Part shown: one piece after another, positions 2,042 through 64,000 of the stretch
Layout of the letters: every line of letters begins with the position of its first letter
Numbering within the stretch: the first letter of the stretch is position 1
Assembly: GCA_041663445.1 (NCBI GenBank)
Contig: JBAYMR010000005.1
Coordinates: forward strand, 996 to 64,995
Direction of reading: 5' to 3'
DNA from: Candidatus Micrarchaeia archaeon
GTDB lineage: Archaea > Micrarchaeota > Micrarchaeia > Anstonellales > Anstonellaceae
Length of the DNA: 64,000 nucleotides
Notes under the pieces: generated by a model
Told to the model about the DNA's origin: nothing
The model's input: only the letters and a program-made list of their open reading frames with translations
The model's database searches: none
Program-made: the position numbers and the translations under genes

Positions 2042-2078
2042 GCTCCCATCCGCTTGCCTGCTGGCAAGTCTGGGGGCA
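2042..2078 (+). repeat. tRNA-Glu acceptor-stem mimic minihelix (5' leader copy)
   Basis: GCTCCCA (2042-2048, identical to the tRNA 5' acceptor strand) pairs with TGGGGGC (2071-2077, one U.G pair). It encloses hairpin CTTGCC-TGCT-GGCAAG. Confidence 0.6.
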
Positions 2079-2083
2079 CAAGC

Positions 2084-2288
2084 GCTCCCATAGTCTAGCC
2101 CGGTAAGGACGCGGGCCTTTCATTGAACTCTTTTCGGCGTATCGAAAAGCTTTCACGGAAAGAAGAAAGCCTGTAACACGGGTTCAAAAGCGAATCTGGC
2201 AATGCCGCCAACCCCTCGCAGGGTTGACGAACCTGTCGTGCTGATGCACGGCAATTTGCCCGCTTCGCGGGCAATCCCGTTGGGAGCG
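2084..2288 (+). tRNA. tRNA-Glu(UUC) with two introns (37/38 and T-loop 59/60)
   Basis: Manual cloverleaf from three exons. Exon 1 is 2084-2122: GCTCCCA TA GTCT AGCCCGGTAA GGAC G CGGGC CTTTCA. Exon 2 is 2168-2188: A GCCTG TAAC ACGGG TTCAAA. Exon 3 is 2275-2288: T CCCGT TGGGAGC G. The mature RNA is 74 nt. Confidence 0.75.
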
Positions 2289-2298
2289 TTTTTTTTTT
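2289..2298 (+). terminator. oligo-T tract immediately after tRNA-Glu
   Basis: T10 run directly after the discriminator base. Archaeal termination typically occurs at oligo-T. Confidence 0.5.
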
Positions 2299-2312
2299 CT
2301 TTTGCCAATGGA

Positions 2313-2354
2313 GCTCACAGCAAGTTGTGCAGGAGCACAACTGCGTTGGGAGCA
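2313..2354 (+). repeat. tRNA-Glu acceptor-stem mimic minihelix (downstream copy)
   Basis: GCTCACA (2313-2319) pairs with TGGGAGC (2347-2353) with one mismatch. It encloses the 7-bp hairpin GTTGTGC-AGGA-GCACAAC and is followed by a T-rich tract. It aligns with the last ~45 nt of intron 2 plus exon 3, with compensatory stem changes. Confidence 0.6.
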
Positions 2355-17411: not shown

Positions 17412-17711
17412 CTAGTATTTAAACCCCGCCGTCCTGCCGCAGGAACAGGCATATTCCGCCGTGCGCGTGCGCTTCCGAAGGCGCACGCGGGTGTTCTTCC
17501 CGATGATGCGCGGCATGCCGCAGGATTTGCAGAAGCGCGCGCGGTCATTTTTGGAAAAGCGGCAGTTGTAGCGGGTGGAGAGCTTGCGCGCGAGGAAGAC
17601 ATAGCGCTTGGCGTGCTTTTCGTCGCCTGCGCGCAATGCCTTTTCCGCAAGCGTAAGGAGTATGCCAATCCTTTCATAGACTATTTCGCGGATGCCAGTC
17701 TGCTGCGCCAT
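17412..17711 (-). CDS. rnp4: RNase P protein component 4 (Rpp21)
   Basis: The last 99 codons of track ORF 17412-18290, starting at MAQQTGIRE. Zn-ribbon CKSCG...CSCG and an Rpp21-like helical N-terminus. The upstream part of the track ORF runs through a tRNA gene. Confidence 0.8.
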   Translation of the reverse strand: MAQQTGIREIVYERIGILLTLAEKALRAGDEKHAKRYVFLARKLSTRYNCRFSKNDRARFCKSCGMPRIIGKNTRVRLRKRTRTAEYACSCGRTAGFKY

Positions 17712-17730
17712 GGGGAGGGATTTGCACCTG

Positions 17731-17743
17731 AGATTAATAAAAA
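17731..17743 (-). promoter_or_regulatory. TATA-like box (TTTTTATTAATCT) about 27 nt upstream of the rnp4 ATG
   Basis: The spacing is consistent with a leaderless transcript. Confidence 0.4.
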
Positions 17744-17795
17744 CGAGGGTAGAGGCAGCAAAAAGGGCGGGCTTGCTGCGGCTAAGATTGAAGAC

Positions 17796-17871
17796 AAGGA
17801 GAAAGTGGGCCCGACGATGGAGCGCGGCAGCGCGACAGATTTTGTGCAACAGCACAAAACAAAGGGCACAC
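17796..17871 (-). repeat. duplicate of the tRNA 3' end with acceptor-mimic fold
   Basis: The 22-mer AAGGAGAAAGTGGGCCCGACGA occurs at 17796-17817 and 17875-17896 (plus strand). On the minus strand the copy is preceded by GTGTGCCC (pairs with GGGCCCAC, one mismatch) and hairpin TTTTGTGC-TGTT-GCACAAAA. Confidence 0.6.
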
Positions 17872-17884
17872 TTTAAGGAGAAAG

Positions 17885-18110
17885 TGGGCCCGACGAGATT
17901 TTCGAGATGCCGCAAACATGGGGTTTGGGCTGTCATTCGAACTCGTGACCTACAGCTTTCCAAGACACAATCGTCTGTTCCGGAGGAACTGGCGAATTGC
18001 CGTGCGCTTGGCACGACATTTTTGCGAGAGCGTGTCATATAAGACGTGCGTCGGAGGAGACGCTTGCGCGACTCTTCCAATGCCGCTCTAACCAGCTGAG
18101 CTACGGGCCC
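17885..18110 (-). tRNA. tRNA, isotype unresolved, with a T-loop (59/60) intron and about 110 nt of further intervening sequence in the anticodon-arm region
   Basis: Minus strand reads GGGCCCG TA GCTC AGCTGGTTA GAGC G ... GCTGT AGGTC ACGAG TTCGAA [37-nt intron, 17899-17935] T CTCGT CGGGCCC A. The acceptor, D and T arms are perfect. The anticodon arm could not be assembled by eye. Confidence 0.6.
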
Positions 18111-18135
18111 ACTAAGAGGAGATTGAGTGAAAAAA

Positions 18136-18145
18136 GATTTAAACC
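18136..18145 (-). promoter_or_regulatory. TATA box (GGTTTAAATC) 26-35 nt upstream of the tRNA 5' end
   Basis: Sequence and spacing are typical of archaeal tRNA promoters. Confidence 0.5.
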
Positions 18146-18165
18146 AGCCTGCGGGAAGGCGCGCG

Positions 18166-18918
18166 CTAGTGTGCGGCGCGGTAAAGGCGCAGGAGCGCGG
18201 ACATGGAGATTGGCAGGTAAAAAAGCGGGATGTAAAACAGGCTGAAGACGGGCACGAGCGCCGGGATGGCAAGCGCGAAGGCGACAGCAAAGTAGATGGC
18301 GACCTGGAGCGGGTTGCGGACGCTTGCGGACACCGACGTCCTTATTGCGCTTATCGGCCCCTTGCTATCCACCACTACGGCGGGCATGGCGAATGCGAGA
18401 AGGAAGGCTGCAAAGGCGGCATAGAGGATGACGAGCAGGATGGCCGCCACGGAAAATATCTGCCCGAGCGACGGGGCGATGGCAACCGCGAACAGCAGGG
18501 GTGCGCCGACAAGCACGCAGCAGATTATGGAGATGAGCATGAGCGGGGTTGCGAATTTCGGCACGCAGAGGAAGAATGCGCCAAGCGATTGCTTGCGCTT
18601 GGAGATGAAGCCGTTGAGGGTGGAAAGGTAGGCGCCGTGCAGGCCGGACGACACCCAAAGGACGGCCAGGATGCCGATGGAAAGCGCAATCAGGGAAACG
18701 CTCAGCCCGACTGCCGCAACCCCGATGGTTCCGTCCGAGGCAACCAGGTTCGCCACGCTCCCGAGCGAAACGATGCCGAAGATGCCAAGGCAAAGCGCGG
18801 TGAAAAACGACAGCGCCGTGCCTATGGCGGCAACTATCACGGAATAGACCGCATAGTCCGCCACGGATTCGCGGTAGGACGAGAATGCTTCCGAAAATGC
18901 CTGTACTGCGCTTGCCAT
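18166..18918 (-). CDS. multi-pass membrane protein, unknown function
   Basis: About 6 hydrophobic helices. Start chosen at MASAVQAF; the track start at 18981 would overlap the divergent gene. Confidence 0.6.
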   Translation of the reverse strand: MASAVQAFSEAFSSYRESVADYAVYSVIVAAIGTALSFFTALCLGIFGIVSLGSVANLVASDGTIGVAAVGLSVSLIALSIGILAVLWVSSGLHGAYLSTLNGFISKRKQSLGAFFLCVPKFATPLMLISIICCVLVGAPLLFAVAIAPSLGQIFSVAAILLVILYAAFAAFLLAFAMPAVVVDSKGPISAIRTSVSASVRNPLQVAIYFAVAFALAIPALVPVFSLFYIPLFYLPISMSALLRLYRAAH

Positions 18919-44272: not shown

Positions 44273-44380
44273 AGCCCCATCGTCCAGTGGTCAAGGATAC
44301 GAGGCTCTGACGAACCGGATCTTGCCCGCCTTTCGGGGCGGAGATACCTCGGGACATCGGTTCGAATCCGATTGGGGCTA
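44273..44380 (+). tRNA. tRNA-Gln(CUG) with a 35-nt canonical intron
   Basis: AGCCCCA TC GTCC AGTGGTCAA GGAT A CGAGG CTCTGA [intron] A CCTCG GGAC ATCGG TTCGAAT CCGAT TGGGGCT A. Has the A1:U72 pair typical of archaeal tRNA-Gln. Bulge-helix-bulge geometry: CTCT pairs with GGAG, flanked by 3-nt bulges. Confidence 0.85.
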
Positions 44381-44403
44381 CTCTTTTCTTTACATTAGGT
44401 TTC

Positions 44404-44449
44404 GCCCCAATTCTCGCCACCCTTCGGGTGACGATCCGATTGGGGCTAC
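44404..44449 (+). repeat. tRNA-Gln 3'-end copy folded as a minihelix (unit 1)
   Basis: GCCCCAAT (44404-44411) pairs with ATTGGGGC (44439-44446). It encloses hairpin GCCACCC-TTC-GGGTGAC. ATCCGATTGGGGCTAC is identical to the tRNA from T-loop position 59 to 2 nt past the discriminator base. Confidence 0.6.
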
Positions 44450-44477
44450 TTTATCTTTCCTCTTTCCATTAGCTGCC

Positions 44478-44515
44478 GCCCCAATTCCCGCGGGGCTCGG
44501 CTGGATTGGGGCTAT
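44478..44515 (+). repeat. tRNA-Gln 3'-end copy folded as a minihelix (unit 2)
   Basis: GCCCCAAT (44478-44485) pairs with ATTGGGGC (44505-44512) and is followed by a T-rich tract. A collapsed third unit, GCCCAAATCGGGGC, lies at 44534-44547. Confidence 0.55.
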
Positions 44516-63269: not shown

Positions 63270-63409
63270 GTTCGCAGCAAGCCGCCCTATTTTTCGGCGC
63301 ACCGAAAAATGGACATCTTGTGCGTTGCGACGCACAAGACCGTCCGCTGGGACGGGATTCGCCCGCCCTGAACACTACACACTGGCCATTTTCGCGTGGC
63401 AGATTCTCC

Positions 63410-64000
63410 CTATAGTGGTTTTTTTGTTTGCTGCGGAGCACTGGCGCCACCGGCTTGAATGGTGGTTTTCTGTTTCCGGGCCATTGCAGTCCGCTCCTTC
63501 AAGTCGCCTCGTTGCCTTTCGGGATCCATTGAATAATTCAAGTAGTCCATCTGTTTTTGTATCGTCTTGCGGATGTCCTCGCCTGCGATTTTCTCGCAGA
63601 TGTAAAGCCCCAAGTCAATCGAAGACGTCACCCCGCGCGCGGTTATGACGTTCCCATCATCTACAATCCTCTCATTAGACACTTCTTTTGCAAATTTACG
63701 CAGATAATCTATGAGGGCAGGGTGAGTGGTGGCTTTTTTGCCATCCAAACCCCCTGCCACGCCAAGCAGTATGCTCCCGCCGCAAACAGCAGCTATTTTC
63801 GCGTCCTTGTCCGTGTTTTTGAGCCAGAGTATGAACTTCGCGTCCTTTACGAGTGTCCCTATCGAGTTCCCGCCTGGCACTATCACATAATCGTAGCCTG
63901 AAAGATTGTTTTTCACTCTGGATGGGAGAATCTCGAGCCCCTCCCATGATTTTACCTTTTCGCTGAACGCGCACACGTCCCATTCCAAGTCAGGAACAAA
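63410..64000 (-). CDS. DJ-1/PfpI family protein; N-terminus beyond the window end
   Basis: AAVCGGSILLG nucleophile elbow. The frame is open to nt 64000. Carries a basic C-terminal tail. Confidence 0.8.
   Translation of the reverse strand, partial: FVPDLEWDVCAFSEKVKSWEGLEILPSRVKNNLSGYDYVIVPGGNSIGTLVKDAKFILWLKNTDKDAKIAAVCGGSILLGVAGGLDGKKATTHPALIDYLRKFAKEVSNERIVDDGNVITARGVTSSIDLGLYICEKIAGEDIRKTIQKQMDYLNYSMDPERQRGDLKERTAMARKQKTTIQAGGASAPQQTKKPL

Follow-up and report, generated by a model that had tools for sequence, protein, structure and literature searches.

The 64-kb window analysed here (the whole stretch of 64,000 nt taken from contig JBAYMR010000005.1 of a Candidatus Micrarchaeia archaeon, numbered from its first letter) carries a minus-strand gene for tRNA-Ile(UAU) that is split by three introns and lies upstream of rnp4, the gene for the RNase P subunit Rpp21. 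Between the two genes we find a short module that ends in a second, exact copy of the tRNA's 3' end, and it is this module, along with its counterparts at other tRNA genes, that we describe. The parts of the tRNA gene, reconstructed manually, and those of the module downstream of it are the following.

17885-18110, minus strand: tRNA-Ile(UAU) gene, whose spliced 74-mer is called tRNA-Ile(tat) by ARAGORN.
18110-18081, 18045-18038, 17957-17936 and 17898-17885, minus strand: the four exons.
18080-18046, minus strand: intron 1, at position 29/30, 35 nt.
18037-17958, minus strand: intron 2, at position 37/38, 80 nt.
17935-17899, minus strand: intron 3, at position 59/60 (in the T-loop), 37 nt.
17875-17896, minus strand: repeat copy 1, the end of the tRNA from T62 to A73 (17896-17885) plus the trailer CTTTCTCCTT (17884-17875).
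17864-17874, minus strand: X', AAAGTGTGCCC, an inverted copy of GGGCCCACTTT with a single conserved mismatch opposite C71.
17840-17859, minus strand: hairpin 1, TTTTGTGC-TGTT-GCACAAAA, with a perfect 8-bp stem.
17822-17833, minus strand: hairpin 2, GCGC-TGCC-GCGC, from fold prediction and orthologous modules.
17796-17817, minus strand: repeat copy 2, a putatively displaced 3'-exon end plus trailer, preceded by A instead of C61.

The 22-mer AAGGAGAAAGTGGGCCCGACGA, as read on the plus strand, occurs exactly twice in the window, at 17796-17817 and 17875-17896 and thus 79 nt apart, with no third copy in the window even when three mismatches are allowed. The pair is the longest short-range direct repeat of the window and did not arise in any of 100 dinucleotide-preserving shuffles (chance expectation 0). 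Read on the minus strand, the repeat consists of TCGT (the 3' strand of the T-stem, positions 62-65), CGGGCCC (the 3' strand of the acceptor stem), the discriminator A and the 10-nt trailer CTTTCTCCTT, an order that matches the reconstructed 3' end of tRNA-Ile. Both the duplication, with the same coordinates and spacing, and this order of its parts had been put forward in a first-pass annotation of the DNA, and both are borne out by our searches. Copy 1 is the live 3' end of the gene, because the 74-mer spliced in silico is accepted by ARAGORN as tRNA-Ile(tat), and it is preceded by C61, so that the T-stem is intact. The T-loop intron has a fold resembling the bulge-helix-bulge motif (BHB), with ACGAG/CUCGU and UUCGA/UCGAA helices and an AAU bulge. 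As the gene holds three introns, it escapes ARAGORN as well as Rfam run at gathering thresholds: ARAGORN reported no tRNA on the whole unspliced window, Rfam reported a single one elsewhere (44273-44380) and did not detect the unspliced tRNA-Ile gene, and Rfam at permissive thresholds returned nothing relevant over 17600-18250 or the whole window. The gene is conserved across the related loci L001-L010 and L133-L146. The UAU anticodon of the spliced tRNA reads AUA without a modified CAU; a tRNA-Ile with this anticodon has been reported in few archaeal lineages only.

Copy 2 terminates a 57-nt module made up of the inverted 3'-end copy (X'; the copied strand that it can pair with is X) and two hairpins. 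An A stands where C61 is needed, so copy 2 cannot complete a T-stem. Within X' (17874-17864), GTGTGCCC pairs with GGGCCCAC at 7 of 8 positions, and the perfect 8-bp hairpin follows at 17859-17840. The first-pass annotation had placed such a pairing partner and such a hairpin ahead of copy 2, and had also noted that the hairpin shares its TTGTGC..GCACAA core with one downstream of tRNA-Glu; we reproduced the former two and located the latter at 2325-2340, the core having three matches in the window against 0.06 expected. When folded in isolation, the tRNA-Ile module has a predicted fold of -29.2 kcal/mol (z = -6.2) in which a closing stem encloses two hairpins, and the predicted stem is of the acceptor type, with 11 pairs, one mismatch and a free 3' tail. 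The module has neither a T-arm nor a 7-nt T-loop, the loops of its inner hairpins being 4 nt long, and it gives no match to the tRNA model of Rfam even at E <= 10 and none by ARAGORN. A manual search of the Ile and Gln sequences and folds revealed no in-phase BHB motif at the module junctions, whereas the real 59/60 intron has one. The module lies outside the mature tRNA, past the discriminator, and its removal is not needed to make the tRNA, which copy 1 completes.

The same kind of feature is present at every tRNA gene that we detected in the window. A heuristic search that asked for a D-arm, for a T-stem with TTCRA and for a 5' acceptor strand matched by a 3' one, and that allows introns and may miss genes, returned exactly three tRNA genes, Ile, Gln (44273-44380) and Glu (2084-2288). 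Each of the three is followed, within about 70-135 nt, by one or two copies of its own 3' end. No distant copies of tRNA 3' ends were found in the window. As a control, we took 15 tRNAs that ARAGORN detects on unrelated metagenome contigs; for none of them was a 10-nt copy of the 3' end present within 350 nt. The features at the Gln and Glu genes are as follows.

44273-44514, plus strand: tRNA-Gln(CUG) with two modules (Rfam tRNA, 50.2 bits for 44273-44380).
44404-44411 and 44478-44485, plus strand: Gln X', GCCCCAAT, inverted, one before each 3'-end copy.
44438-44448 and 44504-44514, plus strand: Gln 3'-end copies, GATTGGGGCTA, from the repeat search.
2042-2353, plus strand: feature comprising a tRNA-Glu-like gene with a T-loop intron (2084-2288), from the heuristic search.
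2313-2321, 2324-2341 and 2344-2353, plus strand: Glu downstream module, consisting of X' (GCTCACAGC), a hairpin and a 3'-end copy (CGTTGGGAGC), from the repeat and fold search.
2042-2049, plus strand: Glu upstream copy of the 5' end, GCTCCCAT, with an inverted partner TGGGGGC at 2071-2077.

At tRNA-Gln a hairpin precedes the first copy and a T7 run follows the last copy only, and the repeated segment starts at position 59, that is at the 59/60 site of T-loop introns, as it also does in locus L002. The module of the window's tRNA-Gln has undergone a lineage-specific tandem duplication, and the Gln orthologues L150 and L151 keep the X'...X bracket. At tRNA-Glu we further observed that the 5' end GCTCCCAT is doubled, at 2042 and 2084, with a hairpin and the inverted partner TGGGGGC in between, which indicates that modules can also sit upstream of a gene. 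Given the TATA-like TTTTTTAA, the expected start of transcription falls at about the first GCTCCCAT copy, and a 12-nt piece of the end of the Glu T-loop intron (CTTCGCGGGCAA, at 2263) recurs at 2020 in the promoter region.

Searches of genomes and assemblies with the Rpp21 protein, which shares 100% identity with a protein annotated in a Candidatus Micrarchaeia MAG, yielded 16 distinct related tRNA-Ile loci, among which the number of 3'-end copies varies from one to three in a patchy fashion. One copy is present in L001, L005, L006, L008, L009, L010, L133, L138, L140 and L146, two are present in the window, L002, L004, L007 and L135, and three in L003; L139 has short GGGCCCATT repeats. A metagenome scan with the 14-mer TCGTCGGGCCCACT gave unrelated chance matches only, a tRNA-Ile T-arm being found in 0 of 120 loci. 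The T-loop intron is missing in L002, L006, L133, L139, L008 and L009 and belongs elsewhere to one of four unrelated types (I-IV). Type I measures 37 nt in the window (17899-17935), 73 nt in L004, L005, L135, L138 and L146 and 124 nt in L003 (2619-2768), the differences being whole inserted hairpins, and one such unit recurs in the downstream module of L002; the introns seem to grow and shrink by hairpin units.

The modules of the tRNA-Ile loci fall into types A (L003, L004 and probably L132), B (the window, L003 and L135-137), C (L007) and D (L002), of which A and B are paralogous, with 74% mean column identity. They follow a common plan of trailer, X', hairpin 1, AT-rich linker, hairpin 2 and copied 3' end. 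X' differs by type: in A and B it has the mismatch opposite C71 (at the same place in L003, L004 and L135 as in the window), in C it is reduced to a short GGTCCC, and D has none. The last copy bears the trailer and T-run of the single-copy relatives and the inner copies have T-runs of at most 3; L002 and the window's tRNA-Glu have a T6 or T10 run directly behind the first copy. Neither an open reading frame (ORF) nor an integrase lies between the copies at any of the loci compared (the window, the 16 tRNA-Ile loci and two tRNA-Gln loci), where the spacers measure 55-176 nt.

The hairpins of the modules are maintained through compensatory changes. When six complete modules were folded, five were predicted to form the closing X'/X stem and inner hairpins, with z from -2.8 to -6.5, and the sixth, the second Gln module of the window, was predicted to fold differently, with z = -1.7. 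In the five A/B modules hairpin 1 is 100% paired, and three of its eight pairs have changed on both sides. Hairpin 2 differs wholly in sequence between orthologous modules and is retained as a hairpin in each of them (with one mismatch in L003). In the Gln locus L151 the T-stem part of X has decayed and the pairing with X' is retained. A mismatch near the top of the stem is found in 5/5 aligned Ile A/B modules, and the Gln and Glu modules have one mismatch as well, at other positions. Comparing L004 with L003, we also observed that in L004 a T follows the discriminator of copy 1 and X' starts with A (GGGCCCAT ... ATGTGCCC), and that these bases are C and G in L003. This co-variation pairs X' with the upstream copy, whereas the Glu gene of L007 and the Gln gene of L151 favour the downstream copy, and both pairings may be relevant.

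The modules have a sequence relationship to genuine introns of the lineage, as judged from alignments. In each of six comparisons, module B (window, L003, L135) proved similar to the type II T-loop intron of L001 and L007 (p = 0.002-0.042), and no similarity of module B to types I, III or IV was found; the stem of hairpin 1 in the window matches hairpin 1 of the type II intron in both L001 and L007. Relative to L001, which has intron II only, the genes with module B have an extra intron I, a 3' exon and about 25 nt between TTCGAA and the intron-II-like hairpin. Module D of L002 is similar to intron III of L140 (score 30, p = 0.001), to intron II of L007 (z = 7) and, over 56 aligned nt, to the T-loop intron of the window's tRNA-Glu (p = 0.001), all three at p <= 0.002, and it also matches part of the tRNA-Ile 37/38 intron (GCGCAC..CAATTCGCCAG) and a hairpin inside the T-loop intron of L003.

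We therefore favour, with a confidence that we put at about an even chance, a reading in which the copies are displaced cassettes of "T-loop intron plus 3' exon" that became stacked downstream as renewal of the gene's 3' part took place. The anatomy of the modules, their recurrence at the three detected tRNA genes, their variable copy number, their similarity to introns, the conservation of their hairpins and the lack of a link to rnp4 (see below) are observed, and we infer the direction of events, a recombination mechanism, co-transcription and inertness, as follows. The tRNA genes of this Micrarchaeia lineage are split by several fast-evolving, hairpin-rich BHB introns, often at 59/60. The 3' part of a gene would then have been renewed more than once, each time by a new segment (a T-loop intron, a 3' exon and a few trailer bases) set directly after the T-loop, whether through a local duplication of part of the gene or through recombination with another allele, anchored in the conserved body of the tRNA. 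The older intron and its 3' exon would have been shifted downstream and left there as one to two stacked modules. Because the inner copies have no strong T-run or terminator, a module is probably co-transcribed, within the trailer of the pre-tRNA, where it would be inert and self-folding. X' would pair with the copied acceptor strand, alongside the two inner hairpins, and such self-pairing would prevent competition of the spare acceptor strand with the real one, a protection of tRNA folding that alone could explain the conserved pairing; the module would then be removed on 3' maturation after A73. Direct repeats would make the gain and loss of modules easy, which could account for the one to three copies in relatives and for the Gln duplication that is specific to the window. 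The reverse step is equally possible: a module would become a new 59/60 intron if the proximal 3' end were deleted.

Several points weigh against the displacement of introns and 3' exons. X' is not explained by an origin as an intron and needs an extra assumption, either that it is left over from the 5' acceptor strand of a duplicated gene or that it was copied by fold-back. Collinear alignment of the modules to their own genes, with long deletions allowed, gave z = 6.2 for L002 and z = 4.1 for module B of L003, and the similarity of the window's module to its own gene is not significant (z = 1.1); an origin of the module as a degenerate copy of the whole gene is thus supported for the former two and unsupported for the window's own module, and we retain it solely as a sub-hypothesis on how X' arose. 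To intron II the window's module has a modest similarity, in short alignments (p = 0.04 for L001 and 0.002 for L007), and neither module A nor module C is directly similar to any intron. Two loci show signs of selection, which would speak for a function. The X'...X bracket of Gln is kept in three lineages (antiporter 79-100% identical), its interior ranging from 55 to 176 nt. In the relative L007, tRNA-Glu has a degenerate second copy in which GG has become AA in X, and the candidate X' has TT for CC. The direction of change, from a former intron to a module or from a module to a future intron, is read from a rough proxy, Rpp21 identity, in place of a species tree, and the comparison spans one 64-kb window and about 20 short loci.

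A more elaborate version can be entertained only tentatively, namely that the stacked modules are snapshots of the birth and death of T-loop introns and that, in addition, the X'/X minihelix is selected, being co-transcribed and protecting the folding or the 3' processing of pre-tRNAs with several introns. If this were true, the gene would have a spare 3' exon behind it, so that deletion of the proximal 3' end would make a 59/60 intron and a fresh 3' end would retire the old one, a previously undescribed route of BHB-intron turnover that would be traceable at the population level in Micrarchaeia.

The conserved pairing also raises the possibility, which we regard as doubtful, that the module is a functional, co-transcribed tRNA-like element of the trailer, in which X' and the copied acceptor strand would form an acceptor-like stem before the terminator T-run. 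The stem might offer a handle for processing, at which RNase P or tRNase Z would cut by analogy with plant mitochondrial t-elements or mascRNA; other roles might be that of a structure for termination or insulation and that of a chaperone in the folding of a multi-intron pre-tRNA. The strong predicted folds of five of the six complete modules (z down to -6.5), the compensatory changes in hairpin 1 and the constant mismatch near the stem top of all five aligned Ile A/B modules are consistent with it, as are the X and X' that changed together in the Glu gene of L007 and the Gln orthologues, which keep the X'/X stem although the interior cannot be aligned and in which, in L151, pairing survives the decay of the T-stem part of X. 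Strong T-runs come only after the last copy at the Ile A/B/C and Gln loci. Micrarchaeota genomes are generally reported to be compact, and in a compact genome the retention of such elements would be notable. However, the element is dispensable, no module being present in the relatives L001, L005, L006, L133, L138 and L146 with the same gene order, and it has no T-loop and no match to a tRNA model. The T6 or T10 run right after the first copy in L002 and at the window's tRNA-Glu implies that the module there should rarely be transcribed. Moreover, a processing stem would not need the sequence of the neighbouring tRNA, and hairpins are equally conserved in the introns, which are discarded.

We consider it unlikely that the repeats are integration scars of the attL/attR type, left when an element whose attP site held the 3' part of a tRNA, possibly with an intron, supplied a new 3' end and was then mostly deleted, with repeats becoming stacked. 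The repeat does cover exactly the region typically used by integrases, from the T-loop or T-stem to a few bases past the discriminator, it is a direct repeat of a tRNA 3' part in which one copy completes an intact gene, and the oldest trailer lies at the far end, as serial integration predicts. There are precedents in the literature (PMC3293823, PMC9897764), and one contig of IMG/VR holds a partial tRNA with an identical 3' half. On this contig (L131, 10230-10310), which is predicted to be viral, has 64% GC and comes from an unrelated organism, the 3' half of the tRNA-like piece is identical to that of tRNA-Ile (GGTCACGAGTTCGAATCTCGTCGGGCCCA), and it may be an att-type fragment. Yet only 55-176 nt separate the copies at every locus, with no integrase and no ORF, the window has no distant copies, and three independent integrations would be needed, each deleted almost fully and each leaving a similar small, structured remnant. 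The intervening DNA does not look foreign, since it resembles resident tRNA introns, even the intron of another tRNA in the same genome, and att sites do not include an inverted copy such as X'.

The first-pass annotation had proposed, as a speculation, that the module mimics a substrate of RNase P and that this suggests feedback control by way of rnp4, the neighbouring gene outside the feature; such a mimic would titrate or sense the enzyme.

17412-17711, minus strand: rnp4 (Rpp21/Rpr2; Pfam PF04032, Rpr2, E = 1.2e-11).

We regard this as very improbable. The anatomy on which the proposal was built (the 3'-end copy, its inverted partner and the perfect hairpin) stands, as does the distance of about 85 nt, with rnp4 starting at 17711, 85 nt from copy 2 and on the same strand, and confirmed by its Pfam match; the mimicry and the feedback do not. 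In favour of the idea one can cite this proximity, the acceptor-like stem that is predicted, and the order of tRNA-Ile and rnp4, which is kept in many relatives. Modules of the same kind, however, lie behind tRNA-Gln and tRNA-Glu, neither of which adjoins a gene for RNase P, both being far from any such gene. The annotation had regarded absence of the second copy from close relatives as speaking against its proposal, and the relatives divide on this point, thus bearing out half of it: the copy is missing in six of the same layout (L001, L005, L006, L133, L138 and L146), and there are two copies in L002, L004, L007 and L135 and three in L003. The annotation had also pointed to a TATA-like box of rnp4's own, and we find it at 17743-17733 (TTTTTATTAAT); the block is conserved in all related loci, about 30 nt before the ATG of rnp4 and with a short leader, regardless of whether and which modules are present. 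Furthermore, L148 and L149, whose Rpp21 is 87% identical, have no tRNA upstream of rnp4, in L008 and L009 another gene sits between tRNA-Ile and rnp4, and a mimic would be expected to show the T-arm with a 7-nt T-loop or the match to a tRNA model at E <= 10 that the module does not have. As the modules occur at three tRNA genes and are patchy in relatives, there is no basis for a specific role in RNase P feedback: the repeat is not a regulator of rnp4, and RNase P feedback is not supported.

It is equally improbable that copy 2 acts as an alternative 3' exon still in use and that the 79 nt between equivalent points of the copies form a further intron cut by the splicing endonuclease: in-phase removal would restore the same mature sequence, the lineage has an endonuclease of broad specificity (PMC3239211) and the modules are related to introns, but there is no in-phase BHB, the central helix of which would need a palindromic 4-mer in the repeat, where the sole palindrome, GGCC, puts the cut after A73 without an outer helix and the Gln repeat has none, and copy 1 already completes the tRNA while copy 2 alone is without U60 and C61. 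Such in-phase splicing of the 79-nt unit, for which no BHB can be drawn, was rejected, and so were two further candidates: a mobile element with terminal inverted repeats, because the inverted ends are specific for each tRNA (Ile, Gln and Glu each have their own) and must therefore be made locally; and a primer-binding site for tRNA-primed reverse transcription, because X' complements the genomic trailer (CTTT) and not CCA.

Some neighbouring structures were noted in passing. An extra hairpin, GCAGCAA...TTGCTGC with a T5 run (17755-17779, minus strand), lies between copy 2 and the rnp4 promoter and is specific to the window, being absent from related loci. In L140 and L141 a lineage-specific insert, about 400 nt long and holding a small ORF of about 75 codons, separates tRNA-Ile from the rnp4 promoter, and no second 3'-end copy was seen at the far side of this insert. 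Elsewhere in the window (63270-63430, plus strand), three perfect hairpins, one of which (TCTTGTGCG-TTGCGA-CGCACAAGA) has the TTGTGC..GCACAA core, lie after the end of an ORF and before a T7 run, with a weak, sub-threshold Rfam match to ncS025 (31 bits); this cluster could be another structured RNA gene or a multi-intron tRNA missed by the heuristic.

With respect to the displaced cassettes that we favour, the related genomes display a range of states, with no T-loop intron, with one of four intron types, and with one to two intron-like modules that each carry a spare 3' exon, and introns and modules that share sequence provide a testable series for intron turnover by renewal of the 3' end. 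On the practical side, standard tRNA finders miss multi-intron genes of this kind, and duplicated tRNA ends in such genomes call for a comparison of relatives before they are taken for regulatory mimics or integration sites.

Among known systems, the t-elements of plant mitochondria and the MALAT1 mascRNA are tRNA-like elements that direct processing within transcripts. As modelled, the modules resemble them in having an acceptor-like stem with inner hairpins beside a real processing site and could likewise be cut by RNase P or tRNase Z; they differ from them in having no T-loop, no cloverleaf and no match to a tRNA model, and in being dispensable in close relatives. Partial copies of tRNA genes (att repeats) are left by integrated elements in archaea and bacteria (Reiter 1989 and Williams 2002, as cited in PMC9897764), and in a Caldiarchaeum population intron gain in tRNA-Thr is accompanied by scattered tRNA fragments (PMC3293823). 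Like att repeats, the feature described here combines an intact tRNA gene with a direct repeat of its 3' part, from the T-arm to just past the discriminator, and, like the tRNA-Thr case, it is tied to the gain or turnover of introns. Unlike att repeats, the copies are 66-176 nt apart instead of kilobases and have no integrase or foreign gene between them, they are present at all three tRNA genes detected in the window, and their spacer, in which an inverted 3'-end copy is included, has its relatives among the resident tRNA introns.

There is also a likeness to the introns of the organism group itself. The tRNAs of Micrarchaeum (ARMAN-2) are rich in non-canonical introns, 59/60 included, and the organism has an epsilon2 endonuclease of broad specificity (PMC3239211); the live tRNA-Ile gene of the window, from the same group, has introns at 29/30, 37/38 and 59/60. 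The modules are homologous in sequence to genuine T-loop introns and differ from BHB introns in lying downstream of the discriminator, in having no BHB and in ending in a duplicated exon segment. Non-canonical BHB introns and their 'transposition' have been described for Thermoproteales (Fujishima 2010, as cited in PMC3239211 and PMC4390854), and here, too, related introns occupy different positions and tRNAs (Ile 37/38, Ile 59/60 and Glu 59/60). How archaeal non-canonical introns are gained and lost is debated, with transposition, integration of mobile elements and an ancient origin as the proposals (PMC3239211, PMC4390854). Next to these systems, the feature belongs to a variant of tRNA-gene fragment duplication that has not been described before, extends across the lineage and is tied to the turnover of T-loop introns.

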